Shown here: one piece after another, positions 25,757 through 57,820 of the stretch
Numbering within the stretch: position 1 is the first letter of the stretch
Layout: each line of letters starts with the position of its first letter
Assembly (NCBI GenBank): GCA_021107795.1
Contig: JAIOSB010000027.1
Location: forward strand, 290 to 64,289
DNA from: a bacterium
Lineage (GTDB): Bacteria; Patescibacteriota; Dojkabacteria; SC72
DNA: 64,000 nt
Direction: 5' to 3'
Position numbers and translations under genes: made by a program
The notes under the pieces: model-generated
Seen by the model: the letters and a program-made list of their open reading frames with translations, nothing else
Databases searched by the model: none
Told to the model about the DNA's origin: nothing

Positions 25757-27826
25757 CTACTCCTTAGCCTGTTTCATACTAAGCTTTATCTTCCCATCCC
25801 TTGCTATCTCTACTAACTTTACCTTTACCATATCCCCTTCCTTTACAACACTGTTTACATCCTTTACAAAATCATCTGCCATCTCTGAAACATGAACTAA
25901 ACCAGAAGTACCAGGATTAATATCTACAAATGCACCATAAGGCATTACTGAAGCTACCTTACCCTCATAGATTTCTCCCTCTTTTGGTATAAAGTTGTAC
26001 CTAGCGATATATGACATAGCTTTCTCCAGCTTCTCCTTGTTATCCGCATAGATATTCACTGTACCATCATCCTCAATACTAAGCTCTGCACCACTCTGCT
26101 CTGTAATCTCCTTAATATTCTTACCCCCTGGACCAATTAATTCCCCTATCTTATCTACAGGAATCTTTGCACTAGTAACCTGTGGAGCTGTTGCTGAAAC
26201 CTCTGGTCTAGGTTCTGATATTGCTTCCTCTATCTTATCTATCACCTGTAATCTACCCTCTTTACACTTCTTAAATGCCTCTTCTACAATCTCCATACTT
26301 AAACCCTTCATCTTGTTATCCATCTGTACAGCAGTAACACCATCCCTTGTACCTATTACCTTGAAATCCATATCACCGTAGAAGTCTTCTACTCCTTGCA
26401 TATCTGTAAGGATATTGATAGATTCATCATCTCCTAGTACAAGACCACAAGCTATACCACCTACAGTCTTCTTTATTGGAACACCAGCTGCCATTAAAGC
26501 TAGACTAGATCCACATGCAGAAGCCATAGAGCTTGAACCATTCTCACCTTGAACTTCAGATACAATGATAATGGTGTATGGGAATTCTTCTTTGGTAGGT
26601 AATACAGGAATTAGTGATTTCTCAGCTAACATTCCATGACCAACACCTCTTCTACTTGGTATGAGCCTAATTCTACCTGCTTCACCATATACATATGGTA
26701 AGTCATTGTAGAAATGCATGTAGTTCTTCTCCTTGTTTCCAAGCATATCATCTACTAATTGTGCATCATCCAATGTACCAAGTGTAGCTACTGAGAGCAC
26801 TTGCGTGAGTCCTCTTGTGAAAAGTCCTGTACCATGTACTTTAGGAAGTAAGTCTATTTGAGTGTCCATTTCTCTAATCTCATCTAATGCTCTACCGTCT
26901 ACTCTAATGTTTTCTTCTTTTACAATTCTTCTAAGTCCCTTCTTCTGCAACTTATCATATGCTTCTGAGAGATCTTTCTTAGAAAATTTTCCTTCAAATT
27001 TAGTGAAGACTTCTTTCATAGTTTCTTGGTGTTGACTCTTCTTTGCATCCTTAAGATTTTTCTCTGCTTTCTCACCCAAGAATTCCTCTAGAGATTCTAA
27101 AAGATTTTCTGGTAGTACTTTAGGAGTATATATTTTCTCCTTTGGACCACCTACTAGTTCTACAAATTTGTTCTGTGCTTCTAACCATGGTTTCATATCC
27201 TCTAAACCTCTTCTCATAGATTCTACTACTGTATCATCTGCGATATCGTTACATGCTCCATCGATCATGGTGAATACTTCTCCATCTCCTGATACGATGT
27301 AGTTCATTGGGTTTTCATCTGATACTGTAGCCATACTCTTGTATACTGATCCTTCAAGACCAACATTTACACCTGCTACTGGACCTTCAAATGGGATATT
27401 TGACATCACTAGTGCTGCTGATGCTGCGTTGATTGCAAGAAGTAGAGGGTCGTTTTCTTCATCATATGACATGACTGTGATGATTATGTTTACTTCGTCC
27501 ATGTAGTCGGAAGCAAATCTAGATCTAAGAGATCTGTCTATCATTCTAGATTTCAGTACTGCTTCATCAGATGGGAATCTTTCTCTTTTTACAAATCTAG
27601 AACCACTGATTTTCCCTGCAGCGTAGTATCTTTCAATATATTCTACAGAAAGGGGGAAGTAGTCCATATCACCAGTGGATGGGTTACTATTTACATTTAC
27701 TGTAATTGTGGTGTCTCCCATTTTGGCAAATATGGAATTTTGTGACTTTAAGGCTAATTTACCAGTAGAGAAACTACATTTCCTACCGTCAATCTCAAAC
27801 TCGTGTAACTTTTCGTTAAAAAGCAT
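25757..27826 (-). CDS. pnp: Polyribonucleotide nucleotidyltransferase (PNPase)
   Basis: 689 aa, two RNase PH-like cores, then a KH segment and S1 (GKVASVMPYGAFVDI...GLVHVSE) at the C-terminus; downstream of rpsO as usual. Confidence 0.95.
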   Translation of the reverse strand: MLFNEKLHEFEIDGRKCSFSTGKLALKSQNSIFAKMGDTTITVNVNSNPSTGDMDYFPLSVEYIERYYAAGKISGSRFVKRERFPSDEAVLKSRMIDRSLRSRFASDYMDEVNIIITVMSYDEENDPLLLAINAASAALVMSNIPFEGPVAGVNVGLEGSVYKSMATVSDENPMNYIVSGDGEVFTMIDGACNDIADDTVVESMRRGLEDMKPWLEAQNKFVELVGGPKEKIYTPKVLPENLLESLEEFLGEKAEKNLKDAKKSQHQETMKEVFTKFEGKFSKKDLSEAYDKLQKKGLRRIVKEENIRVDGRALDEIREMDTQIDLLPKVHGTGLFTRGLTQVLSVATLGTLDDAQLVDDMLGNKEKNYMHFYNDLPYVYGEAGRIRLIPSRRGVGHGMLAEKSLIPVLPTKEEFPYTIIIVSEVQGENGSSSMASACGSSLALMAAGVPIKKTVGGIACGLVLGDDESINILTDMQGVEDFYGDMDFKVIGTRDGVTAVQMDNKMKGLSMEIVEEAFKKCKEGRLQVIDKIEEAISEPRPEVSATAPQVTSAKIPVDKIGELIGPGGKNIKEITEQSGAELSIEDDGTVNIYADNKEKLEKAMSYIARYNFIPKEGEIYEGKVASVMPYGAFVDINPGTSGLVHVSEMADDFVKDVNSVVKEGDMVKVKLVEIARDGKIKLSMKQAKE

Positions 27827-27918
27827 AAATAAAAATATAAAATTTATATATCAAAATATAGCTTACTTAAAAGCTGTGTTCTGTGAAAGTTATATCAAGA
27901 AAGAGGAGAAAAAGAAAG

Positions 27919-28182
27919 TTAAATCTTTATCTTCTTTGTGAAAGTCTTGAATCTGTCAGCTTCATTGACCTCAAGATATTGAAGCAGTCTTCTTCTTTTT
28001 CCTACTTTTTGGAGTAAACCTCTTCTAGAGTGGTTATCCTTCTTATGATCCTTGAGATGTTCGGAAAGTTTCTGAATTTCTGATGTGAGGATTGCAACTT
28101 GAACCTCTGGGGATCCTGTATCTCCTTTATGAAGTGCGTATTTCTTTATTATTTTTTGCTTGTCAGTTGTGGTAAGGGACAT
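27919..28182 (-). CDS. rpsO: 30S ribosomal protein S15
   Basis: 87 aa, ...[51 protein letters not shown]... Confidence 0.9.
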
Positions 28183-28216
28183 AGTTATCTCTAGAGTAAC
28201 ATGATATTAAACATAT

Positions 28217-28239
28217 TACAATGACAAAAAGTCATTGTA
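28217..28239. promoter_or_regulatory. Perfect 9-bp inverted repeat (tacaatgac-aaaaa-gtcattgta) between infB stop and rpsO start
   Basis: Read directly from the sequence; no T-tract follows on either strand, so it is not a canonical intrinsic terminator. It may be an RNA processing or regulatory hairpin in the infB-rpsO spacer. Confidence 0.3.
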
Positions 28240-28293
28240 CAAGAACTCGACATTGTACTTTATTATAGGCTATCTGTCAACAATATTGGTATA

Positions 28294-29910
28294 TTATTTC
28301 ACTATCTTGTAACAATATATCTCATCTCCTTCTTCTGCGTCAACTGAGACATCCAAAATCACTCCACAGTCTGTGCCTTTGTCTACTTGTGTAAGGTCCT
28401 TTTTATTAATCTTTAATGACTTAATTCTTCCTTCAGCAAGGATGTCGTCGTCGCGGACTATATAGCATTTACAGCTTTTCTTCAAAACACCTTCTGTGAC
28501 CCTATTACCTAGTACTGTCTGACCATCGGAGAGGGTAAAGATTGCTTTGATTACAGCCTTACCTATTTCTTCTTCAGTTTCTCCTGGCTGAGAGAGTAAA
28601 TTCAATGCTTCTTCAATTTCATCTATTAGTTTGTAGATAATGGCGTAGGATCTTACTAAGACTTTGTATTTCTTTGCTAATTCCTTTGCATTTCTTTCCA
28701 TTCCTACTTCAAATCCTAGTATTATTGATTTCGTGACATGAGCTTTCTCGATATCTTTGATGGTTACATCCCCAATTCCTTGGTCTATGATATTTAGTTC
28801 TGCTCCTTCTACCTTAATTTTGGCTAATGATTTCTGAAGTGCCTCAAGAGATCCTTCTGAACCACTTTTAATCATTACAGCTAGTAATTTCACTTCATCT
28901 TCTGGTTCATTGCTGTCCATCTGAAAGAATTCTTCAAAGGACACTTCTGGATCTGGTTCTGCTCCTTCTTCAGTTGGCTTCTCTTCTACAACAGTTTCTT
29001 CTTCTACTTCTACGACAACTTCAGGAGTTTCTTCATCACTTTGAATGGGGTGTAGTATTTTCTTGTCGTTTTCTTCTAGTATGTATATTTCAGAACCAAG
29101 TGGTAGTATATTTGAAAGTCCTAATATCTTTCCTCCACATCCTGTTTCGAACCCTTTTATATGTTCACCTTCTTCCGAGATGAGGCCTTTTACTCTTTCG
29201 ATTACGATTTCTTTGTTAGCTTCATAGCCTATGAAATCTCCTTTTTTGATAGAGCCTTGGGTAACAACTACTGTTGATACATTCCCTCTAGATTTCTCCT
29301 TTACAGATTCTAATACAAATCCTTTAGCTAAAACTTTGTCTAGTAATTTCCCTCTGTTTTGTAATCCTTCCACTTCTATTACTAAATTAATCATATCTAA
29401 AAGGTCTGGTATTCCCTTGCCTGTCTTACCAGAGACTTCTACTACAGGGATTTCACCTCCCATTCCTTCTACTGAGATACCTTCAGATGCTAATTCTCTT
29501 TTTATCTTTTCAATATCGGTATTTGGTAAATCGCATTTGTTGATAACGACAATTGGTTTAGCTGTAGAGTCTTTGATAATTGCAATGGATTCTTTTGTTT
29601 GGGGTTTCACACCATCATTAGCGGCTACAATTAGTAAAACAATGTCTGCAATACTTCCCCCTCTTAGTCTCATCAAATCAAAAGCTTCATGACCTGGAGT
29701 ATCTACAAAGGTAATTCTTTCGTCTTTCTCACAATCTGGTGCTACGGTAAATACTGAAATCTTTTGTGTAATACCTCCAGCTTCACATTCTTGGACATTA
29801 GCTTCTCTAATTTTATCAAGTATTGTTGTTTTACCATGGTCTACATGACCAAGTATTGCAACAATTGGTACTCGCTTATTTTCATTTTTCTTCTTCTTTG
29901 TCTTACCCAT
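28294..29910 (-). CDS. infB: Translation initiation factor IF-2, short form (G-domain onward)
   Basis: 538 aa; [20 protein letters not shown]...DTPGHEAF...NKCD; lacks the long N-terminal domains of typical bacterial IF2. Confidence 0.9.
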   Translation of the reverse strand: MGKTKKKKNENKRVPIVAILGHVDHGKTTILDKIREANVQECEAGGITQKISVFTVAPDCEKDERITFVDTPGHEAFDLMRLRGGSIADIVLLIVAANDGVKPQTKESIAIIKDSTAKPIVVINKCDLPNTDIEKIKRELASEGISVEGMGGEIPVVEVSGKTGKGIPDLLDMINLVIEVEGLQNRGKLLDKVLAKGFVLESVKEKSRGNVSTVVVTQGSIKKGDFIGYEANKEIVIERVKGLISEEGEHIKGFETGCGGKILGLSNILPLGSEIYILEENDKKILHPIQSDEETPEVVVEVEEETVVEEKPTEEGAEPDPEVSFEEFFQMDSNEPEDEVKLLAVMIKSGSEGSLEALQKSLAKIKVEGAELNIIDQGIGDVTIKDIEKAHVTKSIILGFEVGMERNAKELAKKYKVLVRSYAIIYKLIDEIEEALNLLSQPGETEEEIGKAVIKAIFTLSDGQTVLGNRVTEGVLKKSCKCYIVRDDDILAEGRIKSLKINKKDLTQVDKGTDCGVILDVSVDAEEGDEIYCYKIVK

Positions 29911-29932
29911 GGCGAGTATTAAATGAATTAAA

Positions 29933-31180
29933 TTACTCTTTCTTCTTTACTACTTTCTTCTTTTTCACTTCTTTTTTCTTCTTCACTACTTCTTCTTTTA
30001 CATCTTCTTCTTTCTTAACTTCTTCTAAGACTTCTTCTTTCTCTACTACTTCCTCTTTTACCTTTTCTTCTTTCTTAGCTTCTTCTGATGTTTCATCTTT
30101 CTTGACTTCTTCATCAGCCTCTTCAACCACTTCTTCTCCTTCAGGACTCTCTATATCAATTTTCATCTCAGTTAGCTTCCAAGCTAGTCTTACATTCTGT
30201 CCTTCTTTACCAATTGCTAATGACAACTGATCTGCATCTACTATGACTGTTGCAGTTTCATCATCAATACTTACATCATTAACCTTGGCTGGACTCAATG
30301 CATTTGCAACGAACCTTTCTATATTCTCATCCCACTCGATTATATCAATTTTCTCTTCACCAACCTCGTTCATAATGTTTGCAATACGAATACCTCTTTG
30401 ACCTACACATGAACCAATTGGATCAACACCCTCTTGGTGAGAAACAACTGCTATCTTACTTCTAGTACCTGCTTCTCTTGCAACAGCTTTAATTTCTACA
30501 ATACCGGATTCAATTTCTGGGACTTCAAGTTTAAAAAGTTCTACTAAGAAATCTGGGTCAGCTCTAGATACTAAAACTTCTCCATCTTCGATACTCTTGA
30601 GAAGCACTTTATATCTCTCTCCTATTTTGTAATATTCATTACTAAGTTGCTCTTCTTGTGGCATCATTGCAGTAGCTTTACCTATTTCAAAGATTACTTG
30701 ACCTCTTTGCATCCTTTGCATTAGTGCAGTAAATACCTCTCCAACCTTATCACTATATTCGGCCAATACTGCATCTTTTTCAAATTCACTCATTTTCTGG
30801 AGAATAACTTGCTTTGCAGCTTGTGCAGCAATTCTACCCAATTCCTCAGAAGGAAGTTCAATTTGAACAGTATCACCTACTTCTACATTAGGAGAAATTA
30901 GCTCAGCTTCAACAAGAGCTATCTCTATCTCTTCATCTTCTACACCCTCCACAACAGCCTTGTTAGCAAAGAGTTTAAATTCTCCAACCTCTCTATCTAC
31001 CTCCACTGAGAGATGCTCTGCTACAGTATTTCCCTCATCATCTCTGGTTAAACCATATTTATCCTTTTTGTAAGCTGCTAAGATTGCAATCTCTAGTGCT
31101 TCAAAGATTTTTTCTTTGTCTAATCCTCTTTCTGCCGCTATCTGGCTTATTGCGGATATAAAGTCGGTAGTCATTGCCAT
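29933..31180 (-). CDS. nusA: Transcription termination/antitermination factor NusA with K/E-rich C-terminal tail
   Basis: N-terminal domain, S1 and two KH segments (GSCVGQRGIRIANI...; AIGKEGQNVRLAWKLT), then ~70 residues of EEVKKEE-type low complexity. Confidence 0.9.
   Translation of the reverse strand: MAMTTDFISAISQIAAERGLDKEKIFEALEIAILAAYKKDKYGLTRDDEGNTVAEHLSVEVDREVGEFKLFANKAVVEGVEDEEIEIALVEAELISPNVEVGDTVQIELPSEELGRIAAQAAKQVILQKMSEFEKDAVLAEYSDKVGEVFTALMQRMQRGQVIFEIGKATAMMPQEEQLSNEYYKIGERYKVLLKSIEDGEVLVSRADPDFLVELFKLEVPEIESGIVEIKAVAREAGTRSKIAVVSHQEGVDPIGSCVGQRGIRIANIMNEVGEEKIDIIEWDENIERFVANALSPAKVNDVSIDDETATVIVDADQLSLAIGKEGQNVRLAWKLTEMKIDIESPEGEEVVEEADEEVKKDETSEEAKKEEKVKEEVVEKEEVLEEVKKEEDVKEEVVKKKKEVKKKKVVKKKE
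29940..30130. repeat. Low-complexity cttctt/tttctt tandem-like DNA encoding the NusA K/E tail
   Basis: Visible reiteration of cttcttc / ttctttc units at the 3' end of nusA; the antisense S/T-rich ORF 29823-30230 is a mirror artefact of it. Confidence 0.5.
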
Positions 31181-31221
31181 ATCTATTTATCATCAAAATT
31201 TAGAATTCTAAGAAAAGTTTT

Positions 31222-31255
31222 ATAAAAAAAAGGTGAGACTTTCATTCCTCACCTC
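31222..31255 (-). terminator. Rho-independent terminator downstream of dnaJ
   Basis: On the minus strand, stem aggtgag / ctcacct (7 bp) with loop gaatgaaagt is followed by tttttttta (plus-strand A-run 31223-31231). Confidence 0.55.
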
Positions 31256-31302
31256 TTTCCTCATAACTTTCAAGGAAAGTATAGCAGAATACGATATTCA
31301 AA

Positions 31303-32385
31303 TCAAATAGCACCAAGCTCTTCCCACAGCTTCTTTTCGCTCCTAGACAACTTTTTAGGTATTTCCAGCTCAATTCTTACATATAGGTCTCCCTTCATAC
31401 CATCTTTGCCTAGTATCGGAACACCCTTTTCACGAATTCTAAATATTGATCCACTCTCCGTACCCTTAGGGATCTTAAGCGTCACTTTCCCATATGGTGT
31501 ATTAACCTTAATATTCCCTCCGAGCACTGCTACATGAATTTTAATACCCTCCTTCGTATATATATCACTACCCCTTCTCTCAAACTCTCTTGACGGCTCT
31601 ACTTCGATTTCAATATACAAATCCCCAGAAGGAGTACCCTTAGGACCTGCATTCCCCCCACCTCTGAATCTAAGCACCATACCATCATATGCACCTGCCG
31701 GTATCTTAATCTTCTCATTCTCGCGATTAATCTTAACACCTGTACCACCACACTTTGAACAATTCTCTTCTGGGACTTCACCACTTCCCTCACAGTCATT
31801 ACAAATACCATTAACTGCAATTGATCCTAATATTGTTCTCTGTACTTTCTGAATCCTCCCACTACCACCACAAGTCTTACATACTTTCATCTTCTTTGTC
31901 TTACTGCCTGTACCACCACAATATGAACAGGAGATATCTCTCTCAATATTTACTCCAAATGCACCTCCCCTGATTGATTCATCAAAATTAAGCTTTATCC
32001 TATATTTAATATCTGAACCTCTAACCCTAGTTTGCTGTTGACTACCACCAAAATCAAACCCTCCACCACCTCCGAAGAAAGTATTGAAGATATCTCCCAT
32101 ATCAAACGGTGTACCTTGGGCGTATCCATTAAAACCACCATATCCACTACTACCACCAAAACCAGCAGTTCCTGCATGACCATATTGATCATATGCCTTC
32201 CTTTTTGATTCATTAGAAAGAATCTCATACGATTCCTGCACCTCCTTAAACTTGTCTTCAGCACCATCCTCCTTGTTGACATCAGGATGATACTTCTTAA
32301 CAAGCTTTCTGTAAGCTTTCTTAATTTCATCTTGTGTAGACCCCTTATCCACTCCAAGTGTTTTGTAATAATCTTGTTTTTCCAT
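31303..32385 (-). CDS. dnaJ: Chaperone DnaJ
   Basis: J-domain with HPD (YRKLVKKYHPDVNK), G/F-rich region, four CxxCxGxG zinc-finger repeats (CSYCGGTG, CKTCGGSG, CNDCEGSG, CSKCGGTG). Confidence 0.9.
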   Translation of the reverse strand: MEKQDYYKTLGVDKGSTQDEIKKAYRKLVKKYHPDVNKEDGAEDKFKEVQESYEILSNESKRKAYDQYGHAGTAGFGGSSGYGGFNGYAQGTPFDMGDIFNTFFGGGGGFDFGGSQQQTRVRGSDIKYRIKLNFDESIRGGAFGVNIERDISCSYCGGTGSKTKKMKVCKTCGGSGRIQKVQRTILGSIAVNGICNDCEGSGEVPEENCSKCGGTGVKINRENEKIKIPAGAYDGMVLRFRGGGNAGPKGTPSGDLYIEIEVEPSREFERRGSDIYTKEGIKIHVAVLGGNIKVNTPYGKVTLKIPKGTESGSIFRIREKGVPILGKDGMKGDLYVRIELEIPKKLSRSEKKLWEELGAI

Positions 32386-34603: not shown

Positions 34604-36466
34604 ATGAATAAAAACTACTCCCCACAATCTGCCAAAAGAAATTTCCTCATGCTTTCATTCTTCTTGGTACTTTGCCTTCCCCTAATTGTATGGCAAGTCG
34701 TTAATGAAAACTTCGATATTCGAAACATGGCCTTCGAACAAATAGAGGTAAGTAAAGAGAACCCTTGCGTCATATCCTTTCCAAATGTAAACCCATATAC
34801 CATAGAAGTAAATAAAACGGTGCGAATGCAAGTAGAAGGAATTGCACAAGGAAGTGGGATAACCTCCATCCTCATTACAGACTCTACCGGAGAAGAAATC
34901 TTTTCTAAAACATATGAAAACGAAAGTAGTGAAATAGCGGAAACTTTCGAATTTACACCAACCACTTCCAAATCATACGAGATAATAGGGACACTCTCAG
35001 AAGGAAGCTACACCAGTGCATGTGTGATAAGTAGCCCATACGATGTAAAAGGAGTTCGTGTAGTAGCAAGTAACAGTGCACCCGAATTCACATCTACCCC
35101 CATAGACTCTACTCCATCACAAGATATCGATACAGATATAGCCTACGAATATACCCTAACCGCAACAGACCCTGAAGGAGACATGATTAATTACGTATTC
35201 TCATTCACTCCAAACGAAGATTGGATGAAGTACACAGTAATAAATGATGGAAGTAATGGAAACCTCAAAATACAATTTAAAGGAAGCACATCTCAACCTG
35301 CAAGCTACCTAGCAAACGTGTTCATACACGACGGATACAGTAAACACCTCAGATCACAATCATGGATAGTAAGCGTAAACCCTGCAGAAAATGATGTCCC
35401 ACGAGTAACAATACTCTCACCATGGGAGGCCCTCTCAGTGACACAAGGGAAAAACCTTACTGTAAAATGGGCAGCATCAGACCAAAACGCCATTACACAC
35501 TACGAACTTTACTTAGCACAAAGTCTCCAAGACGAAACTAAATGGCAGAGCATAGACAAAGATATTGCGTACAATATTGAGGAATACACCCTTAACACAG
35601 AAAATATCTCAGGAGGTATTTACCAAGCGATAATAAAAGCACCAGACAATCAAGACCCAGTACTTATAGGACAAGGAATCTCACCACCAATAACCATCAT
35701 AGGTAAAGAGATTGATACCCCAGATGACAGTGTAACACTACCAGAACCACAAATCATAAATATCTCACCAACAAGTGAAGATAGCATTACTAATGCTCTA
35801 GTTACAATCAGAGCATCATTACTCTCAAGCCAAGATTCTCAAATTGATGAAGACAGCATTCTATTCAAGATCGACAATAAGGACCTAACCTCCAATATTA
35901 AATTCAACAAGATCTCAGATTCTGAATACACACTAATATTCCAAACAGAGGAAGAATTCGATATAGGACTACATAAAGTAGAAATTTCCTTCACTGACAG
36001 CGAAGACCTACAATCCAGTAAAAGTTGGACATTCACAATCGAAGGGAAACAAACTGATCCAGACAAATTCTACTTCTTTGACTACGGTATAACAAAATCA
36101 ATAGTATATGTTGTAGGAGGAGGACTACTACTAATCATTCTCGCACTAGCAATTCCATTAATCCTCGTACAAGTATGGAAAGACGATGAGGAAACATCTG
36201 GAACAGATGATACGCTTACACCACCTACACATACCAATACTGTTGAGAATATTGTTAATAAAAACCAAACAATTGATACAGAACAAAAATTTTCAAAATT
36301 ACAACCCCTCACACAGCCAGAAAAGGATACTCCTCCACCAACAACCTTACAACCACAACCAAAGACAGAAAATACAGAAGAAGACCTTGAAATTCTTTAC
36401 CAAAAAATAAAAGATGAAAAAAACATCAGTACCGACAACGATACGCCTCCAGAACCAATCCTCTAG
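34604..36466 (+). CDS. Surface protein with putative-Ig (dystroglycan/cadherin-like, PF05345-like) domain, C-terminal TM anchor and Thr/Pro-rich tail
   Basis: Signal/TM N-terminus. The PF05345-like domain is APEFTSTPIDSTPSQDIDTDIAYEYTLTATDPEGDMINYVF...WM...NGNL (P.f.s.p...a..g..y.y.v.AtDpdGd.l.y). The C-terminal TM is VVGGGLLLIILALAIPLILV, followed by a T/P/Q-rich tail. Confidence 0.45.
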   Translation: MNKNYSPQSAKRNFLMLSFFLVLCLPLIVWQVVNENFDIRNMAFEQIEVSKENPCVISFPNVNPYTIEVNKTVRMQVEGIAQGSGITSILITDSTGEEIFSKTYENESSEIAETFEFTPTTSKSYEIIGTLSEGSYTSACVISSPYDVKGVRVVASNSAPEFTSTPIDSTPSQDIDTDIAYEYTLTATDPEGDMINYVFSFTPNEDWMKYTVINDGSNGNLKIQFKGSTSQPASYLANVFIHDGYSKHLRSQSWIVSVNPAENDVPRVTILSPWEALSVTQGKNLTVKWAASDQNAITHYELYLAQSLQDETKWQSIDKDIAYNIEEYTLNTENISGGIYQAIIKAPDNQDPVLIGQGISPPITIIGKEIDTPDDSVTLPEPQIINISPTSEDSITNALVTIRASLLSSQDSQIDEDSILFKIDNKDLTSNIKFNKISDSEYTLIFQTEEEFDIGLHKVEISFTDSEDLQSSKSWTFTIEGKQTDPDKFYFFDYGITKSIVYVVGGGLLLIILALAIPLILVQVWKDDEETSGTDDTLTPPTHTNTVENIVNKNQTIDTEQKFSKLQPLTQPEKDTPPPTTLQPQPKTENTEEDLEILYQKIKDEKNISTDNDTPPEPIL

Positions 36467-49910: not shown

Positions 49911-50732
49911 ATGAAACAACATCCAATACCACAAAACGTGCTAGATGTTGAGTTTAAACTCTTCACTAGATTCACAATCAAGGAATTTGCATACCTAGCA
50001 GCAGGGATAGTTAGTGGGTCACTCTTCCTTGTCCTAAACAAACAACTAGGTCTCCCCAGCCTCATTGCATGGCCATCATTTCTCACTCTCTCAGCCATTG
50101 GAGCATTCTTCGCATTAGTACCAATCAACGACCAAGGAGCAGATGAATTTATAAAAAATTACTTCACTGCGATAAAGAAACCAACTCAACGAGTATGGCT
50201 AAATGAACAAATGCAAAGTCAAAGAGTAAAACCAATAGTGAAAACAGAAGACGAAGGCAAAGGAAAGATCGTAGGAGGTAAAATTACAAAGAAAGAAAAA
50301 ACCTTCATTGAAAAACCGGGAGATGATATCCTTCAAGTACAAACATCCCAAACCACTACTAAGCCAGAACCAACGATACAACCCTCCAATTCTTTACCAC
50401 AAACCATTGTCATCGGACCTCAAAATATTTCTCAATATCAATTCGGCATAAAAAGTGTAAATAGACTACCTGGAAATATGAATATTTGGTTGACAGATAC
50501 AAATGACCGAGGACTTGCAAACATTCCAGTATATCTCAAAGACCAAAATGGGAAAGTCATATTCGCTAATAGAACAGGACAGAATGGATACTTCATATTA
50601 AACAAAATCCTCCCACAGGGTATATACCACATACAATTTGATCAACATACATATAAAATTCCAAATATTCAGTGGATATTAGAAAATACACAAAGTAAAA
50701 ACCCAATTAAAATTACAGCGAAACTCGCATGA
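49911..50732 (+). CDS. PrgI/VirB3-like T4SS membrane protein fused to a C-terminal transthyretin/carboxypeptidase-regulatory-like beta domain
   Basis: The N-terminus IPQNVLDVEFKLFTRFTIKEFAYLAAGIVSGSLFLVL...LIAWPSFLTLSAIGAFFALVPI matches the PrgI-family pattern (P.d...eDk..g.ft.rq..yl, two TM). The C-terminus NIWLTDTNDRGLANIPVYLKDQNGKVIFANRTGQNGYFILNKILPQGIYHIQF is a CarboxypepD_reg-like beta sandwich. Its stop overlaps the next start (ATGA). Confidence 0.5.
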   Translation: MKQHPIPQNVLDVEFKLFTRFTIKEFAYLAAGIVSGSLFLVLNKQLGLPSLIAWPSFLTLSAIGAFFALVPINDQGADEFIKNYFTAIKKPTQRVWLNEQMQSQRVKPIVKTEDEGKGKIVGGKITKKEKTFIEKPGDDILQVQTSQTTTKPEPTIQPSNSLPQTIVIGPQNISQYQFGIKSVNRLPGNMNIWLTDTNDRGLANIPVYLKDQNGKVIFANRTGQNGYFILNKILPQGIYHIQFDQHTYKIPNIQWILENTQSKNPIKITAKLA

Positions 50733-51379
50733 ATACAAAAGATAGAGCAAGAGCAACAACCTCTACACAGAGTCACCTAGAGGTAAAAAACATTGTAGAT
50801 GATCTTGTCATCACAAAAAGTGGAAGTGTAGCACTAGTAGTACAAACAAATGCAATAAACTTCGACCTGTTAGCAGAGTACGAACAAGATAGTAAAATAT
50901 ACGCATTTGCGGGACTACTCAACTCCCTTAACTTCCATATACAAATCCTCATCCGAACACAACGAATAGATATCTCTAACTACATTGATCATCTTAAAAA
51001 TCAAAAACAAAAAAACATGTCTGAAGGTCTTAAAGATATGCTCACCACCTACACCCTTTTTGTACAAAACTTAATTGTAGAAAATAATGTTCTTGATAAA
51101 AACTTCTATCTTGTAATACCATACAATCCTGCAGCCATAATGCCAGATGCGAATATCTTTAGTGCAAAGAAAACAAAGGAAGAACAAGAGACACAAAAAG
51201 CCATGAAAAGAGACCACCTACTTGAAAAAGCTAAGATATTTCTTTACCCCAAGAGAGACCATATTATCAAACAACTAGGAAGAATGGGCCTAATGGGGCA
51301 CCAGTTAACAAACCAGGAACTCATAACTGAGTTCTACACAACATATAATCCAGGAGAGGAGGGAAACAGTGGAAGATAA
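50729..51379 (+). CDS. Hypothetical soluble 216-aa protein in the T4SS module
   Basis: No TM; the segment LVITKSGSVALVVQTNAINFDLLAEYEQDS...LLNSLNFHIQILIRTQRID loosely resembles VirB4 N-terminal regions. It is translationally coupled on both sides (ATGA with the upstream gene and an 11-nt overlap with the downstream gene). Confidence 0.35.
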   Translation: MNTKDRARATTSTQSHLEVKNIVDDLVITKSGSVALVVQTNAINFDLLAEYEQDSKIYAFAGLLNSLNFHIQILIRTQRIDISNYIDHLKNQKQKNMSEGLKDMLTTYTLFVQNLIVENNVLDKNFYLVIPYNPAAIMPDANIFSAKKTKEEQETQKAMKRDHLLEKAKIFLYPKRDHIIKQLGRMGLMGHQLTNQELITEFYTTYNPGEEGNSGR

Positions 51380-53759
51380 AACATTACAAAACAAACAAAT
51401 TAATTCTCAAGTTACAGATAAAATTGGTAGTAACCCTCTAAATAAATATGCGGATATTGCAAACAAAGTCCAACAAGAGGTGAATACAGTACAGGAAAGC
51501 AAGATTAACAATATCCAAAAAGACAGATTTGAAGACACTGTAATCAAGAAAGACAAAAAAAGCAATATTATATCTAAAATGCTAGACAAATTTACTCCAA
51601 ATCCTAAAAAAACAAAACCTGACACAGAACCCTCCGTAGAAGCTCAATCCAGACCTACTGCCGACTTCTCTGGACTCTCACTAACAGATATTGTAGCTCC
51701 CCTTGACCTTGAAGTAGATTTCAATCATCTCCAGATGGGAGACTATTACTTCAAAACTTTCTTTATCAGTGGATATCCAAGATTTGTAGGTCCGAACTGG
51801 CTCTCACCTATAATCAATTTCGAACACTCTCTTCGTATTAGTACGTTTTACTACCCTGTAGACTCCAAGATTATAATGGAAAAACTAAAGAAAAAGATTG
51901 GGGAAATGGAAGCAACCCTTTACAGTCAGATGGAAGATAGAAAAGTAATTGATGCATCTCTCAAGGTAAAACTCTCTGATGCTCAACAACTTCAAGATTC
52001 AATAGCGGAAGGAAGTGAAAAGTTCTTCCATTTTGCAATGTATATAACAATATATGCTCCAAACAAGAAACTTCTAGAGAAATACTCCAGAAATATTACC
52101 TCTACACTTGCAGCTATGAATGTAACAGCCAAATCTGCAACTCTTCTTCAAGAACCCGGCTTTATCAGTACACAACCACTTGCATTAGACAAAATCCATA
52201 TCACTCGTAATATGGATACCACATCTTTAGCTACCACATTCCCATTTGTCTCCTCAGAACTCACTATGAACCACGGTATCATGTATGGTCTGAACTTGCA
52301 TAATAATAGTTTGGTAGTATTTGACAGATTCGAATTAGAGAATGCCAACACTGTAGTATTTGCTAAATCTGGAGCTGGTAAAAGTTACTTTGTAAAACTA
52401 GAAGCCGTAAGAAGCTTAATGATGGGTACAGAGATAATAATCATAGACCCAGAGCGTGAGTATGAAGACCTCTCTAAGGCCGTAGAAGGATCATACATAT
52501 CCTTCTCACAAGACAAAGGTCATAAGATGAACCCTTTTGAACTCTCCGGTATGGCAGACGAAGACGACGATGAACTCCGAATGAAGATGCTCTCTCTACT
52601 CGGATTCTTCAAAGTCATGTTTGAAGGCCTATCCAACGTTGAATCTTCAGTACTAGACAGAGCATTAATACTCACCTACAGAGAAAAAGGAATCACATTT
52701 GATCCAAGAACTCAAAAGAAAGATCCTCCTCTACTTGAAGACCTTTACAAAGTTCTTAAAGGCATGGCAGAAGACGAAGCTCATAACTTAGCTAGAAGAA
52801 TGGAAAAATACATCATAGGAAGTGGTGCAGGAATATTTAACGAAGCAAGTAACTTTGAGATAAGCAATCCATTTACCGTCTTTAGTGTAAGAGATCTCCA
52901 AGAAGAACTAAAACCCTTAGCAATGTATCTAATGCTTGACTTTATATGGACTAGAATTAGAAAAGTTCGAAAACGACGATTACTAATCGTAGATGAGGCT
53001 TGGTACATGATGGAAAGAGAAGACTCTGCAAAATTTATGTATGCTATGGCCAAACGAGCAAGAAAATACTATCTAGGCCTCACAACTATTACTCAAGATG
53101 TTGCAGACTTTACCAAAAACGAAATGGGTAAAGCCATCATTTCAAACTCCTCTATACAGATGCTAATGAAACAAAGCCCCTCTGCAGTAGAAACCCTACA
53201 AGCAGTATTTAATCTCTCTGATGGTGAAAGAAACTTCCTATTAAACTGTGATCGAGGACAAGGACTATTCTTTGCTGGCTCAAATCATGTAGGAATACAG
53301 GTTCTCTCTAGCCAAGCAGAGCACGAATTAATTACATCTGATCCTAGAGATATTGAGGCGAAAGAAAAAAGAATAGCACAAGGGATTAAAGATACACGAA
53401 CTAGGGAGGAACTTGCAAAGGTTTTTGCCCCACCATCCGCCCAACAACCCATGAGAGATGGAACTACAATTGCAAAACAGCTATCTATGATTGAAAGAGC
53501 TGCACAGAAAAGGAAGGATGATAAGGTGCAGATAGAGGGAGAACGAAGAAACTATGAAGAAGAAGTACGTAGGAAATTGGAAGAAAAAGATAGAGAACTC
53601 AATCCTGATAAATATACTCATCAGAAATCTTTCAACCAGATTATCGAAGAGAATACAATTCCTGGTCAAGTAGTACAAGCTCGAAAAGACACACAAAGAG
53701 GAAGGCAACATGTCACTCCTCAAGGATTGGTCGACTATAACAATAACGATGGGAAATAA
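51369..53759 (+). CDS. VirB4/TrbE/CagE-family type IV secretion ATPase
   Basis: 796 aa. The Gram-positive VirB4-like N-domain is LDLEVDFNHLQMGDYYFKTFFISGYPRFVGPNWLSPII. Walker A is VVFAKSGAGKSYFVK, Walker B is RRLLIVDEAWYMM, and the C-terminal motifs are ...GLTTITQDVADF... Confidence 0.85.
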   Translation: MEDKTLQNKQINSQVTDKIGSNPLNKYADIANKVQQEVNTVQESKINNIQKDRFEDTVIKKDKKSNIISKMLDKFTPNPKKTKPDTEPSVEAQSRPTADFSGLSLTDIVAPLDLEVDFNHLQMGDYYFKTFFISGYPRFVGPNWLSPIINFEHSLRISTFYYPVDSKIIMEKLKKKIGEMEATLYSQMEDRKVIDASLKVKLSDAQQLQDSIAEGSEKFFHFAMYITIYAPNKKLLEKYSRNITSTLAAMNVTAKSATLLQEPGFISTQPLALDKIHITRNMDTTSLATTFPFVSSELTMNHGIMYGLNLHNNSLVVFDRFELENANTVVFAKSGAGKSYFVKLEAVRSLMMGTEIIIIDPEREYEDLSKAVEGSYISFSQDKGHKMNPFELSGMADEDDDELRMKMLSLLGFFKVMFEGLSNVESSVLDRALILTYREKGITFDPRTQKKDPPLLEDLYKVLKGMAEDEAHNLARRMEKYIIGSGAGIFNEASNFEISNPFTVFSVRDLQEELKPLAMYLMLDFIWTRIRKVRKRRLLIVDEAWYMMEREDSAKFMYAMAKRARKYYLGLTTITQDVADFTKNEMGKAIISNSSIQMLMKQSPSAVETLQAVFNLSDGERNFLLNCDRGQGLFFAGSNHVGIQVLSSQAEHELITSDPRDIEAKEKRIAQGIKDTRTREELAKVFAPPSAQQPMRDGTTIAKQLSMIERAAQKRKDDKVQIEGERRNYEEEVRRKLEEKDRELNPDKYTHQKSFNQIIEENTIPGQVVQARKDTQRGRQHVTPQGLVDYNNNDGK

Positions 53760-53976
53760 TACAGACACTACAATAAATGAAAGTATCTATTTGGTCACAA
53801 AGAAATGTGATGTTAAACACCTATCTCAAGACAAACGTGGTAAAGATTTAGGTGCACTTAAAAAGGCAGAAGAAAGGTCAAAGAAGCGCATGGATATTAC
53901 ATTCGGAAAGAAAGACAACGAAACAACCAGAGCTATGAATGCTCTCAGTATAATGAATCCATTTAAAGGAGTTTAA
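53749..53976 (+). CDS. Small basic hypothetical protein (75 aa) trailing the VirB4 gene
   Basis: ORF only; Lys/Arg-rich; start overlaps the VirB4 3' end. Confidence 0.2.
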   Translation: MGNNTDTTINESIYLVTKKCDVKHLSQDKRGKDLGALKKAEERSKKRMDITFGKKDNETTRAMNALSIMNPFKGV

Positions 53977-55172
53977 CTCAAAGGCCCTTGGTCTGGTAAC
54001 ACAAAATCCCTCAAGTTCTCAGTTGTAATGACTACCGGTATTGGAGAACCGGTTACTAACTTCCTTGCTACTGTTCTAACCAAAGTATATATATTTCTTT
54101 CTAGTTGTCTAATACCTGCATCAAATCCCACTGGTCTAATTAATACTGGCCATACACTATCTTGTATTTGTAGATATTGTTCACTTAGCCCTGTCTCCTT
54201 AAGAATTTTTGGTAATATATAATTCCTTGCAATTACTCCCTTCTCTTCATCTGAGTAGCTAGAAAAACGAATAACTTCTACACGATCAAGGAGTGCAGCA
54301 GACAATCCTCCCAGATTGTTTGCAGTACATATAAAAAAAACATTGGATAGATCTACAGGATAATCTACATAGTGATCCACAAAGGATTTGTTTTGTTCTG
54401 GATCTAATATTTCAAGTAAAGCAGCCATCACATCATTAAGAAGACCCTCCTGTGCACTAGACTTCTCTATTTCATCTAGCAGTATGACAGGGTTCATACT
54501 TTGTGTTCTAACTAATGCTTTAATAATCTGTCCTGGCTCAGCTCCATCGGAATATCTTGGTACTCCTCTTAATGTTTTTACATCCCCTATTGCTCCAAGA
54601 GAGATTCTTGCAAATTTCCTACCCATAGCTTTAGCAATAGATGCTGCGATAGATGTTTTCCCTACTCCTTGCAGACCAACAAATAGAAGTACCGGAGACT
54701 TAATCATTGTATCTACCCTATTATCAGCTACCGCTGGGATATTATAAGCAGTAGGGAAATCCTTGTTCCTTAAAGTCACTGGTTCTGGTGCTTTTGTACC
54801 TATCCCTTTATTTTGTAACTGCATTACTGCAAGGTAATCAAGAATGATATTCTTAACAGTATTCATACCATGGTGGGTAGAATCCATTGCTTTCCTTGCA
54901 TTTTCAATATCATAATTGTCTGCAGACAGTTTTCCCCAAGGTATTTTTGTTATCCAATCCACATACTTATCTATTGTTTCAAATTCAGTACTATAATTCC
55001 CATACTTAGCCATACGAGAAAGTCTAGATATTGCTTTAAGGATATCCTCTTTGAAATCATAAGGTATATTTACACTATCTAGCTTTCTTTGTAATTCCTT
55101 TATCTCTGCCAGAAAATCATCCTGCACACTTTGTATAGGGTTTGGGGCATTGTTCATATATGATAATAACAT
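53973..55172 (-). CDS. Lon-family AAA+ ATPase module without LON N-domain and without S16 protease domain
   Basis: YVDWITKIPWGKL...ILDYLAV (Lon middle region), Walker A LLFVGLQGVGKTSIAASIAKAMGRKF, Walker B VILLDEIEKS, LEILDPEQNKSFVDHY, sensor FICTANN, LLDRVEVIRFSSYSDEEK. The protein ends ~60 aa after the AAA+ helical lid. The flanking genes are sufS (2 nt away) and the plus-strand small ORF. Confidence 0.7.
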   Translation of the reverse strand: MLLSYMNNAPNPIQSVQDDFLAEIKELQRKLDSVNIPYDFKEDILKAISRLSRMAKYGNYSTEFETIDKYVDWITKIPWGKLSADNYDIENARKAMDSTHHGMNTVKNIILDYLAVMQLQNKGIGTKAPEPVTLRNKDFPTAYNIPAVADNRVDTMIKSPVLLFVGLQGVGKTSIAASIAKAMGRKFARISLGAIGDVKTLRGVPRYSDGAEPGQIIKALVRTQSMNPVILLDEIEKSSAQEGLLNDVMAALLEILDPEQNKSFVDHYVDYPVDLSNVFFICTANNLGGLSAALLDRVEVIRFSSYSDEEKGVIARNYILPKILKETGLSEQYLQIQDSVWPVLIRPVGFDAGIRQLERNIYTLVRTVARKLVTGSPIPVVITTENLRDFVLPDQGPLS

Positions 55173-55174
55173 AC

Positions 55175-56449
55175 TTAGAGAGTTCTTAGCACCCCCTGTT
55201 TAATAATCAGTACAACTCTATCTATATCCTCCTGAGTAGAATATACTCCTAAACTTACTCTCATTGTAGGTCCAACCCCAAATTTGTCATGTAAAGGTTG
55301 TGCACAATGAAAACCATCTCTAATACACACCCCTTGCGAAGAGATGAACTCTAAAATATCTTCCCCTCGAGTATTACTATCTATTTTAGACTCTTTACAT
55401 CCTGCAAAGGAAAAACCTTTAAGATTAAATGTAATAGCACCTACTCTTTCTCTACTTCCAAAAAGTTTAAACCATTCTATACCATCAAACTGTGATATAA
55501 AGCTTTCTACTAAATCTCTCTCATGATTAATTAATACATCATATCCTCCCATGTCCTTGACTGCTTCGCTAAGCCATGATATTGCTGTAGCTAGTGCAAT
55601 ACCATCTGCAATATCTGGTGTCCCTGCTTCAAATCTCCATGGTAATTCATTTAAATCAAAGTCCTTTTTACTAACCTCTCTTATCATCTCTCCACCTCCC
55701 ATATATGGTGGCAATTTCTCTAGTATTTCTTTTTTAATATAGATACATCCACTACCCGTTGGTCCATATGTTTTATGTCCAGAGAACACCAGTGCATCAC
55801 ACCCTAAATCTTTTACATCCATGGGTAATCTAGCAATACTTTGAGCTGCATCTATGAGTACAACTGCATTAGATTTATGAGCTAGTTTAGTAATTTCTTT
55901 TACATCATTTATTGTTCCCAACACATTAGATACATGGAGTATAGAAACAATCTTTATCCTTCCTTTCTTCTTGTTTATCAAAGATTTAAACCATTCTAAA
56001 TCTAGTTCATAGTTATCGGCAACAGGAATATATTCAATATTGAAACCTATTTCTTTCTGAAGCATCAACCATGGAACAATATTACTATGATGCTCCATCT
56101 CACTAAGTACAACAATATCTCCTTTCTCTAGATTATGTTTCGCGTATGTATTTACAAAGAGATTTATTCCTTCTGTACAATTTCTAGTAAATATGATTTC
56201 TTCATATGATGTAGCATTTAAAAACTCTGCTACAATCTTATGTGCCTCAATCCATTTTTCTGTGGCTCTTAAAGCTAGTACATGAGAACCTCTATGAATA
56301 TTCGAATTGTACTTGGTGTAGTATTCACTCAGGCAATCAATTACACATTGGGGCTTTTGGGTAGTAGCCGAACTATCTAGGTATACAATTTGTTTCCCAT
56401 TAATCTTTTGATTAAGTATAGGGAATTGTTTTTTAATATTATTTCTCAT
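55175..56449 (-). CDS. sufS: Cysteine desulfurase, SufS/CsdA-type (aminotransferase class V)
   Basis: VYLDSSATTQKPQ, PLP-lysine in SGHKTYGPTGSG, catalytic Cys region RDGFHCAQP. Confidence 0.85.
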   Translation of the reverse strand: MRNNIKKQFPILNQKINGKQIVYLDSSATTQKPQCVIDCLSEYYTKYNSNIHRGSHVLALRATEKWIEAHKIVAEFLNATSYEEIIFTRNCTEGINLFVNTYAKHNLEKGDIVVLSEMEHHSNIVPWLMLQKEIGFNIEYIPVADNYELDLEWFKSLINKKKGRIKIVSILHVSNVLGTINDVKEITKLAHKSNAVVLIDAAQSIARLPMDVKDLGCDALVFSGHKTYGPTGSGCIYIKKEILEKLPPYMGGGEMIREVSKKDFDLNELPWRFEAGTPDIADGIALATAISWLSEAVKDMGGYDVLINHERDLVESFISQFDGIEWFKLFGSRERVGAITFNLKGFSFAGCKESKIDSNTRGEDILEFISSQGVCIRDGFHCAQPLHDKFGVGPTMRVSLGVYSTQEDIDRVVLIIKQGVLRTL

Positions 56450-56479: not shown

Positions 56480-57820
56480 CTATTTCTTAAACAAAGGATC
56501 TTTCTGAAAGAAAAGTTTATTCCATTGATTAATATATTTAATATCTGAATTCTTTAAATTGAAAATATCCTTAATATCCAAATACATATTAAATTTGGTT
56601 AAGTGACTCAGGGGAAGAAGATATTTTGTAAACTCTTTTGACATTTCATCAGACATATATTCTTTTGACTTCTCTCTCCAATTCTTTATATCTACATATG
56701 TCTCAAGAAGATTCCTATTCATATCCCTTTGAAGCTCTGAGTATTTCTTAAGAGATTTTGGTAGTAAGTAGCACTGAGAGTTCTTTCTTTCAAGTTCTTT
56801 ATCAATATCTATGAAGTCTGAAAGAAGTGGTACATATATTGTGTAGTTTTGATCTAGTATTTCAAAAACATCTGTAAGTGGTAAATATCCAGAAAGACGA
56901 CTACCCTTCTGAAATCCTAAATATCCTATATCTCCTTTGTTAATTGTTTTTCCAATAGAGAGTTGATCTTCGTAATCAAATTCTAATTCTTCTTTACTAC
57001 CCAGAGGATTGATTAGCATTTCAAGATTTGTAAATACTTGTTCTACAATGTCTGTGATATATTCAAACTTAAAAGGTTCGGAATCATCTAAATCAAACTC
57101 CTGCTCTTTAGATACGCACTCTTCTAAATATTCTAATATCTTTATTGTAGTCACTCTTTGAGTGCAGTCTGGTATTACCTCAATATCAGTCTTAAGCAAT
57201 TTTTCTAACATATCACCTAGTTGATTATCTAGTACCATATCGCTACACAATAGAGTGTTAGCTAGTTCAATATTGGAGCTTAGGGAGAGGGAGATAGCTG
57301 CTCGATGTTGTATACCGAGTGGTAGGAGAGATTTAGCAAATTCTTTATATTGATTTCCCCTTTTCTTAGCCACTAACCAGTAATTCCTCATACTATTCAG
57401 TTGAATATTTTCATATTCCTTCCTAATCTCCCTGTTCTCACAAACTTCTGTGGGTATTCTGACAAAGTAGGAGCTATCTCTATTTATATATTTCCAATCT
57501 CTTAGTTTGAAAAATGAGCTTGAGGATAGGGAAGAGAGTTTGAGAAATGTATATATTGGGATATTGTCTACAATATATGTTCTGTTATTTATTTCATACA
57601 TATCATCAAGTGGAAATTCTTTCCAATCGTCAATCTCACAACTTTTGCATATATCAAGAATACTTGCTTTGCTACTAAGAGCTTGTTTAATGATGTAGTG
57701 AGTTCTGAGTTTAGAACTGTAATCTTCATTACTTAGTATTGAGAATATTCGTAGTCTATTCCAATATTCATCAGTTCTAATATCTTCTATATGAAGACCT
57801 TTTCTTTGTATTAATTTCAT
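56480..57820 (-). CDS. Hypothetical 446-aa soluble protein
   Basis: No confident motif. A ThyX-like interpretation was considered and not supported (see noticed_but_rejected). Confidence 0.4.
   Translation of the reverse strand: MKLIQRKGLHIEDIRTDEYWNRLRIFSILSNEDYSSKLRTHYIIKQALSSKASILDICKSCEIDDWKEFPLDDMYEINNRTYIVDNIPIYTFLKLSSLSSSSFFKLRDWKYINRDSSYFVRIPTEVCENREIRKEYENIQLNSMRNYWLVAKKRGNQYKEFAKSLLPLGIQHRAAISLSLSSNIELANTLLCSDMVLDNQLGDMLEKLLKTDIEVIPDCTQRVTTIKILEYLEECVSKEQEFDLDDSEPFKFEYITDIVEQVFTNLEMLINPLGSKEELEFDYEDQLSIGKTINKGDIGYLGFQKGSRLSGYLPLTDVFEILDQNYTIYVPLLSDFIDIDKELERKNSQCYLLPKSLKKYSELQRDMNRNLLETYVDIKNWREKSKEYMSDEMSKEFTKYLLPLSHLTKFNMYLDIKDIFNLKNSDIKYINQWNKLFFQKDPLFKK

Follow-up and report, generated by a model that had tools for sequence, protein, structure and literature searches.

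On the minus strand of a Dojkabacteria contig (JAIOSB010000027.1 of assembly GCA_021107795.1; the whole 64-kb stretch analysed is called the window here), the gene at 53973..55172 encodes a 399-aa protein, hereafter Lon-AAA, which corresponds to the AAA+ module of the protease LonA and has neither a LON N-domain nor an S16 protease domain. Judged by its sequence and those of its relatives, the gene is an intact, conserved and functional Lon derivative and not a decayed gene, and the Lon variant to which it belongs is real, conserved and, it appears, undescribed so far. We hold, with slightly more belief than doubt, that the protein is a housekeeping Lon paralog of the candidate phyla radiation (CPR), which would work as an ATP-hydrolysing oligomer, would not be proteolytic and would not thread polypeptides in the canonical way, but would use nucleotide to drive remodelling or regulation.

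Domain architecture

The gene is an ATG-to-stop open reading frame (ORF) with an alternative start at Met6 that would give a protein of 394 aa. The shorter form is the one recorded at NCBI (P0001; 394 aa from Met6, 100% identical), where it is named 'AAA family ATPase'. Pfam detects only AAA (residues 162–304, 7e-20) and Lon_lid (residues 325–376, 1.2e-8) in the 399-aa protein, and no match to the LON N-domain (PF02190) or the S16 protease domain (PF05362/Lon_C). The match to the TIGR00763 'lon' model (E = 1.3e-100) is restricted to model positions 253–567 of 795, and both its score of 338 bits and the 242 bits obtained with PRK10787 lie below the respective cutoffs (608, curated, and 891). 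The best matches among solved structures are all LonA, the top one being B. subtilis Lon (3m6a, E = 1.1e-73), and an alignment with the Lon structure from M. taiwanensis (MtaLon) pairs residues 17–120 with MtaLon 239–339 and residues 153–371 with MtaLon 342–557. The protein spans the region from the three-helix bundle (3H) to just past the lid, and the chain ends 8 residues beyond the lid alignment. Pfam, the span of the TIGR00763 match and the structure alignment thus agree with the original prediction for this locus, which described a stand-alone Lon AAA+ module without LON N-domain or S16 domain that begins in the middle region of Lon and stops after the helical lid.

The 3H bundle (residues 17–120; 54813..55124, on the minus strand like all parts of the gene) aligns to both MtaLon and B. 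subtilis Lon, is helical in the AlphaFold2 (AF2) model and includes the conserved Y-V-D-W-I-x-x-I-P-W motif; in LonA, this bundle belongs to the AAA+ module (PMC8519571). It is followed by a variable insertion of 37 residues (121–157; 54702..54812), which stays unaligned between the HMMER stretches and separates the bundle from the alpha/beta domain. The insertion is predicted to be disordered, with a predicted local distance difference test (pLDDT) score below 50 for residues 125–157 in the AF2 model, and it varies more than any other part of the protein (column entropy of 2.79 bits, the highest value), its length ranging among relatives from near zero (P0144) to ~130 aa (P0130). The AAA+ alpha/beta nucleotide-binding domain (residues 158–304; 54261..54701) is assigned by Pfam AAA and by the alignment with LonA structures, and the Lon-type alpha-helical lid (residues 305–391; 54000..54260) by Pfam Lon_lid and by its match to isolated Lon alpha-domains (1x37, 4git and 1qzm). 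AF2 modelled the monomer with moderate confidence (pLDDT 67.5), and a Foldseek search with the model matched LonA structures only, adding nothing to the sequence comparison. The long-helix gate of LonA is also missing from the protein.

We searched the window for remnants of the missing domains with hidden Markov models (HMMs) of the LonA N-domain and the S16 domain, built locally from 48 full-length LonA and run on all stop-to-stop segments of the window. In a positive control these HMMs gave 155–265 bits on real LonA genes contained in the fetched loci (155–221 bits with the N-domain HMM alone), with 200–265 bits on two of these genes. No remnant of either domain was detected in six frames of the whole 64-kb window (best E > 2); neither frameshifted LON-N or S16 remnants nor adjacent protease-coding DNA, which had been named beforehand as possible signs of a broken lon gene, were found. 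There is also no room for such domains, as 2 nt are available upstream and ~210 nt downstream, the latter filled by another conserved ORF. The flanks are as originally described, a sufS-like gene with its stop 2 nt upstream and an ORF of 88 aa on the opposite strand, and not the missing domains.

Conservation and relationship to LonA

The same architecture is found far beyond this contig. Among the homologs are more than 120 protein clusters from Dojkabacteria. In the best 120 (304–407 aa, 62–100% identity), AAA and Lon_lid are present throughout and Lon_C or LON_substr_bdg in none, and wherever a taxon name is more specific than 'bacterium' or 'Patescibacteria group', it is Candidatus Dojkabacteria or WS6. 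More distant representatives at 45–63% identity have the identical architecture and are Dojkabacteria wherever named. When one genome per species was scanned with the family alignment, at least 592 relatives were obtained, and the best 80 loci were analysed. AAA-only stop-to-stop ORFs of 349–510 aa without N or P (protease) domains were found in 78 of them, from Dojkabacteria, WWE3 and Microgenomates (Gottesman-, Ames-, Woese- and Shapirobacteria), and the remaining two carry ordinary full-length LonA, which served as the positive controls mentioned above. Pfam confirms the AAA-only architecture in 8 WWE3/Microgenomates members. The architecture recurs in hundreds of independent assemblies, and frequent frameshifts or stops were not seen in the orthologs. 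The original prediction had left the choice between a decayed gene and a functional derivative. Intact ORFs of the same architecture in more than 120 Dojkabacteria clusters and in 78 of the 80 loci, conserved ATPase residues and the lack of remnants speak against decay, and the widespread conserved architecture favours a functional derivative over an artefact. Some members are longer: P0145 (locus L008, 548 aa) and P0162/P0277 (669–703 aa) have an extra region of ~195 aa at the C-terminus or of ~320 aa at the N-terminus, without a Pfam match.

Dojkabacteria, WWE3 and Microgenomatia have been treated as a single clade within the CPR (PMC12641178). Many metagenome-assembled records titled 'Saccharibacteria', 'Gammaproteobacteria', 'Pseudomonadales' or 'Methanoperedens' (L013, L014, L018, L020, L021, L046, L050, L070, L073 and others) carry the gene in Dojkabacteria- or Microgenomates-type synteny; because the gene order is of this type, we hold these labels unreliable, and they look like taxonomic mislabels or mis-binned contigs.

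Phylogenetic placement of the module, suggested along with the original prediction, was run against LonA on an alignment of 345 columns covering 85 family members, 12 CPR LonA and 15 other LonA (neighbour-joining, 30 bootstraps). The AAA-only proteins formed a separate, monophyletic clade in 30/30 bootstraps, and this clade was sister to CPR LonA in 0/30. They are 36–40% identical to LonA, compared with 51–64% between one LonA and another. The consistent clade and the low identity to LonA, both read from sequence, point to a single ancient domain-loss event and subsequent divergence. We propose a family, the CPR LonA-derived AAA+-only paralog, common to Dojkabacteria, WWE3 and Microgenomatia, which on these data would have arisen once. 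The 399-aa protein has its features, namely 3H, AAA+ and lid only, a Walker A of the form G-[LVI]-x-G-x-G-K-T-[ST], the pore-loop pattern given below, and its position in the monophyletic group.

The AAA-only gene and a complete LonA can be present together. In a locus from Microgenomatia (L064), a LonA lies 8 kb from the AAA-only gene and runs off the end of the locus; the complete protein of 820 aa, P0302, is encoded on the same contig (46,475 bp) and has LON_substr_bdg, AAA, Lon_lid and Lon_C. On the JGI contig Ga0613827_000001 (699,001 bp), an 824-aa LonA is encoded at 93.1–95.6 kb and a 399-aa AAA-only protein at 103.0–104.2 kb, the latter directly after pnp. For six more LonA/AAA-only pairs from Microgenomatia, co-location was inferred from longest contigs of identical length (153085, 155667, 62573, 88509, 265352 and 16550 bp). 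Because full LonA shares a contig with it, the AAA-only gene of Microgenomatia is a paralog of LonA and not its replacement, with two contigs verified and six inferred. Another apparent co-occurrence, P0338 with L070, was not used as evidence, as the two records (1,082,443 bp with the LonA and 1,082,363 bp with the AAA-only gene) are different and not collinear in the fetched region. In Dojkabacteria, no canonical Lon was found in the 64-kb window by HMM or in the ~20-kb Dojkabacteria loci, which are the only pieces examined, and the record cross-match that paired the Microgenomatia genes gave no pair for Dojkabacteria. The full-length LonA closest to the query, P0164, showed no CPR affinity.

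Set beside known Lon proteins, the protein is closest to LonA (MEROPS S16, S16.001; 3m6a, M. taiwanensis 7fd4, E. coli Lon), with which it shares homologous 3H, alpha/beta and lid regions (E = 1e-73 to 1e-100) and the hallmarks D-W-x-x-x-x-P-W, L-D-P-E-Q-N, Walker A and B, sensor-1, Arg finger and sensor-2; unlike LonA, it has no LON/PUA N-domain, long helix, S16 Ser-Lys domain or pore-loop signatures and falls into a separate clade. Engineered LonA fragments such as the 344-residue piece of E. coli Lon (6n2i) have a similar span (query 156–391 corresponds to 106–339 of the chain), but these are laboratory truncations that keep their pore loops, whereas Lon-AAA is natural, has evolved independently and has diverged loops. 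By definition, Lon proteases join an AAA+ ATPase (A) domain and, after it, an S16 protease (P) domain in a single chain, and the recognised subfamilies A, B, C and BA all retain the protease domain (PMC9569914). LonC, in which the protease is kept and the ATPase residues are lost (PMC3391209, as described in PMC9569914), is the mirror image of Lon-AAA, which keeps the ATPase residues and has no protease; both lost one activity. LonB and LonBA have a membrane-anchor insertion and a P domain, and Lon-AAA has neither, being collinear with soluble LonA without any insertion in the alpha/beta domain. Our literature searches, limited to an incomplete collection, turned up no account of a naturally occurring Lon paralog without a protease.

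The original prediction also compared the protein with BrxL, but the two share only the label 'Lon-like'. BrxL resembles Lon through a protease-like domain, and this domain is absent from Lon-AAA. PADLOC did not report BrxL, the sole match being a weak one to DolB (44 bits) through a generic AAA domain, and the gene has housekeeping neighbours and no defence-island context; the comparison was abandoned. Other relatives of known proteolytic machines offer an analogy only. Plant FtsHi is a non-proteolytic paralog of an AAA+ protease that keeps a degenerate protease domain, and ClpB, ClpX and HslU are stand-alone ATPases of the HCLR clade with aromatic pore loops that thread substrates; none of them is derived from Lon, and homology is limited to the generic AAA+ fold. 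The searches also returned unusual tandem-AAA Lon proteases (P0123–P0129, P0131–P0135 and others; 900–1,700 aa), which have two to three tandem Lon AAA+ modules, one S16 domain and no LON N-domain, with a hydrophobic N-terminus in the sequences inspected; the one named member is from Candidatus Dependentiae.

Nucleotide site, pore loops and possible function

Motif columns were compared among 134 close relatives, a wider family set (n = 85) and canonical LonA (n = 27, 12 from CPR and 15 others). The nucleotide site is conserved throughout. In the Walker A motif G-L-Q-G-V-G-K-T-S (residues 166–174; 54651..54677), G166, G169, G171, K172 and T173 are invariant in the 134 close relatives and present in 85/85 of the wider family, and the same invariance in both sets holds for D233 and E234 of the Walker B motif V-I-L-L-D-E (residues 229–234; 54471..54488) and for the Arg finger, Arg297 in L-L-D-R-V-E-V (54282..54284). 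Sensor-1 Asn285 (54318..54320) is invariant in the close relatives and is Asn in 84/85 of the wider family, with one K, and sensor-2 Arg355 (54108..54110) is present in 133/134 close relatives, with a single exception in the wider family. The Arg finger of AAA+ proteins acts in trans, which implies an oligomeric ATPase.

The pore loops differ. Canonical pore-loop 1 reads R-G-H-R-R-T-Y-[IV]-G-[AS]-x-P-G in all 27 LonA, the 12 from CPR included, whereas Lon-AAA has the degenerate sequence R-G-V-P-R-Y-S-D-G-A-E-P-G (residues 202–214; 54531..54569) and the family follows the pattern R-G-x-[SP]-[RK]-x-x-x-x-[AS]-E-P-G. The column of the canonical Tyr is occupied by E, V, S or A in the family; a Tyr or His is found one position earlier in some Dojkabacteria, and Microgenomates have no aromatic residue there. 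The tip of the loop has an entropy of 2.28 bits in the family, where it is the 9th most variable of 226 windows of the AAA core, compared with 0.18 bits in LonA, where it is within the ten most conserved. In the pore-loop-2 region, S-A-Q-E-G-L-L-N-D-V (residues 239–248; 54429..54458), the LonA signature [FYW]-R-G-D-P is lost and two residues are inserted, an insertion shared by Dojkabacteria and WWE3 members. Both HRRTY[IV]G and [FYW]RGDP are present in 27/27 LonA and in 0/85 family members. In MtaLonA, Y397 and I398 of pore loop 1 and W431 of pore-loop-II grip the translocating substrate (PMC8519571). The initial statement that all Lon AAA+ motifs are intact is thus right for the nucleotide-site motifs and wrong for the pore-loop-1 and pore-loop-2 signatures, which are absent in 85/85.

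Our preferred reading combines these features as follows. The LonA-derived module of 3H, AAA+ alpha/beta domain and lid would form an ATP-binding and ATP-hydrolysing oligomer, probably ring-shaped, with the Arg finger acting in trans. It would not degrade proteins, and hand-over-hand threading of a polypeptide would probably be absent as well. Its role would most likely be that of a housekeeping ATPase for nucleotide-driven remodelling, assembly or regulation, and the client would be contacted by the 3H bundle, which is retained, and by the variable insertion, not by the central pore. Several points weigh against this. Oligomeric state, ATPase activity and client are all predictions. The ring of protease domains contributes strongly to the stability of the LonA hexamer, and a stable ring might not form from a module that lacks them; the AF2 model of the monomer, only moderate at a pLDDT of 67.5, is uninformative on assembly. 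The degenerate pore-loop 1 retains Arg/Lys and often has a Tyr or His one position off, and the modified loop may grip substrates in a non-canonical manner. Dojkabacteria might have no other Lon relative, and the protein could play a different role in this lineage.

A bolder version of the preferred reading, which we hold with slightly more doubt than belief, is that the family is an undescribed Lon subfamily beside LonA, B, C and BA, an ATP-hydrolysing ring without protease, N-domain or gripping loops that is encoded by a clade-wide core gene alongside LonA and has a mechanism new for Lon. Such a ring would either bind and release clients through 3H and the insertion under the control of the nucleotide, or control LonA allosterically.

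The strongest competitor, possible though on the whole unlikely, is a stand-alone Lon unfoldase or translocase with modified loops, acting as a chaperone or feeding a separate peptidase as ClpX does ClpP and HslU does HslV. The ATPase site and the Arg finger are conserved, the loop retains R202-G203, a basic residue at 206 and E212-P213-G214, with Tyr or His at 207 in 116/134 close relatives, and the 3H bundle, which lies above the pore in LonA, is retained. However, the aromatic-hydrophobic pair of the loop is gone, its tip is among the most variable windows of the core and Microgenomates lack the aromatic residue altogether. No S16 or recurrent peptidase gene was found within ~10 kb in the 78 loci, no protease-docking element was identified, and the N-domain and long-helix gate by which LonA selects substrates are absent. 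Of the proposal that the protein is an unfoldase- or chaperone-type Lon derivative, the derivative part stands, and the unfoldase or chaperone part is weakened by the lost pore-loop signatures and the absent N-domain. According to the title of a preprint, the chaperone-like activity of LonP1 is mediated by its N-domain independently of the ATPase (10.64898/2026.05.06.723147), and the analogy with Lon as a chaperone is weak because that domain is absent here.

We regard as improbable that the protein is a regulatory partner of canonical LonA, one that mixes into or binds LonA rings and modulates proteolysis. A complete LonA lies ~7–8 kb away on the same contig in the two verified cases, and probably in the six others, and the Arg finger at the LonA-type subunit interface and the Lon-type lid are kept. 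On the other hand, the two genes are never adjacent, the identity of only 36–40% to LonA indicates separate evolution, and a subunit without protease would presumably leave a gap in the proteolytic chamber.

Gene neighbourhood

To place the gene in context, 89 loci were clustered and representatives annotated; no neighbour is conserved family-wide. The genes run nusA-infB-x-rpsO-pnp-[gene]-udg-rnj-ftsK in ~35 loci from WWE3 and Microgenomates. The main Dojkabacteria clade, to which the window belongs, has folD-glyA-thyX-like-(dcd)-sufS-[gene], convergent with small ORF-VirB4-TraC-like-PrgI-like. Dojkabacteria of the P0130 type carry the gene after rplY, near groES-groEL-clpB, and the P0144 and P0145 types have neither rplY nor a VirB4/sufS-type context; genes of these last two types adjoin a gene for a protein with Big_5 and Peptidase_C39_2. 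Intergenic gaps are short toward every neighbour and none is exceptional, so translational coupling to a specific neighbour was rejected. A scan for promoters and terminators at the locus gave matches no better than shuffled controls, and one weak hairpin 28 nt after the stop was not used.

Flanked as it is by pnp (PNPase) and rnj (RNase J) in WWE3 and Microgenomatia, the gene might encode a factor in RNA metabolism or ribosome biogenesis, which we likewise consider improbable. The order rpsO-pnp-[gene]-udg-rnj-ftsK does recur in ~35 species-level loci with short gaps, but the adjacency is broken in Dojkabacteria: in the window, the nusA-infB-rpsO-pnp block (25757..32385, minus strand; assigned by Pfam for pnp and infB and by BLAST to neighbourhood clusters 6, 9 and 18) is intact and lies ~26 kb from the Lon-AAA gene. 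Family members are acidic (median pI 5.8, against 9.1 for the same region of LonA), which disfavours nucleic-acid binding, and housekeeping arrays of this kind persist in the CPR through common descent and give little indication of a shared function.

On its own strand, the gene in the window follows the sufS-like gene (55175..56449, minus strand; Pfam Aminotran_5, 1.2e-120), a class-V aminotransferase or cysteine-desulfurase-like gene whose stop lies 2 nt before the Lon-AAA start; this gene is directly upstream only in ~15 Dojkabacteria loci. On the other side, the VirB4/TraC-type ATPase gene (51369..53759, plus strand; Pfam P-loop_TraG, AAA_10 and CagE_TrbE_VirB) is convergent with the Lon-AAA gene and forms a separate unit. 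That unit ends with the small ORF of 88 aa (53710..53976, plus strand), which overlaps the VirB4 end and has no Pfam or PADLOC match. Its stop overlaps the Lon-AAA stop inside the palindrome TTAA (53973–53976), and its homologs of 74–88 aa occur in 15 loci, with the stop overlap kept in 13 of them. The original prediction placed the gene immediately downstream of a type IV secretion system (T4SS) module, which holds in plus-strand coordinates only, and suggested that it services the secretion apparatus. We consider such an accessory role very improbable. The convergent arrangement of small ORF, VirB4, TraC and PrgI is found in 21 loci and persists in L006, where other genes are in place of sufS, and the gene has its stop codon in overlap with that of the last ORF of the VirB4 operon. 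However, VirB4 lies on the other strand and belongs to another operon. The VirB4 cluster is convergent downstream of the gene in 21/89 loci, all in a subclade of Dojkabacteria and down to ~60% identity, and orthologs from WWE3, Microgenomates and other Dojkabacteria lie in other contexts with no VirB4 nearby. In L023 and L024 (~60% identity), udg intervenes between the gene and the VirB4 cluster, indicating that the juxtaposition is secondary. Lon-AAA has no Pfam homology to the T4SS ATPases VirB4, VirB11 and VirD4, and it is not a conserved member of a T4SS operon. From these data we infer that the sufS and VirB4 neighbourhood is a lineage-specific gene order and not a functional unit.

A pseudogene, fragment or assembly artefact of a full-length lon, for which only the truncated architecture speaks, is almost certainly wrong in view of the clean domain boundaries, the lack of room for lost domains and of six-frame remnants, and the same architecture in hundreds of independent assemblies.

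Other genes of the window were noted in passing. The minimal T4SS-like cluster (49911–53976, plus strand), consisting of PrgI-like, TraC-like, VirB4 and small ORF, sits among housekeeping genes (lepA, recF/SMC-like and nucleotidyltransferase) and is syntenic across Dojkabacteria; T4SS_pilin genes are nearby in L006. In the folD-glyA-x-sufS array, a 446-aa protein (56480–57820, minus strand; relatives 444–531 aa) has a weak and partial match to ThyX (Thy1, E = 6e-6), below the usual full-domain coverage, and could be a divergent or extended ThyX. Three large ORFs of 969, 620 and 1,112 aa (10898–13807, minus; 34604–36466, plus; 19376–22714, minus) have no Pfam match or only a weak match to a purple-acid-phosphatase N-domain, and may encode CPR surface proteins.

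The JGI name for members of the family, 'ATP-dependent Lon protease', is wrong; NCBI uses 'AAA family ATPase'. With this family, the very small set of proteostasis genes in the CPR gains a core gene specific to the clade. The family also allows one to ask, with a natural protein, whether Lon AAA+ subunits can build a working ring when the protease ring is missing, and it offers a clean system for separating the ATPase-dependent non-proteolytic functions of Lon from degradation. A conserved ATPase-only paralog of LonA would mean that the Lon motor has been re-used beyond proteolysis, and this view is strengthened because the substrate-gripping loops have been lost as well.

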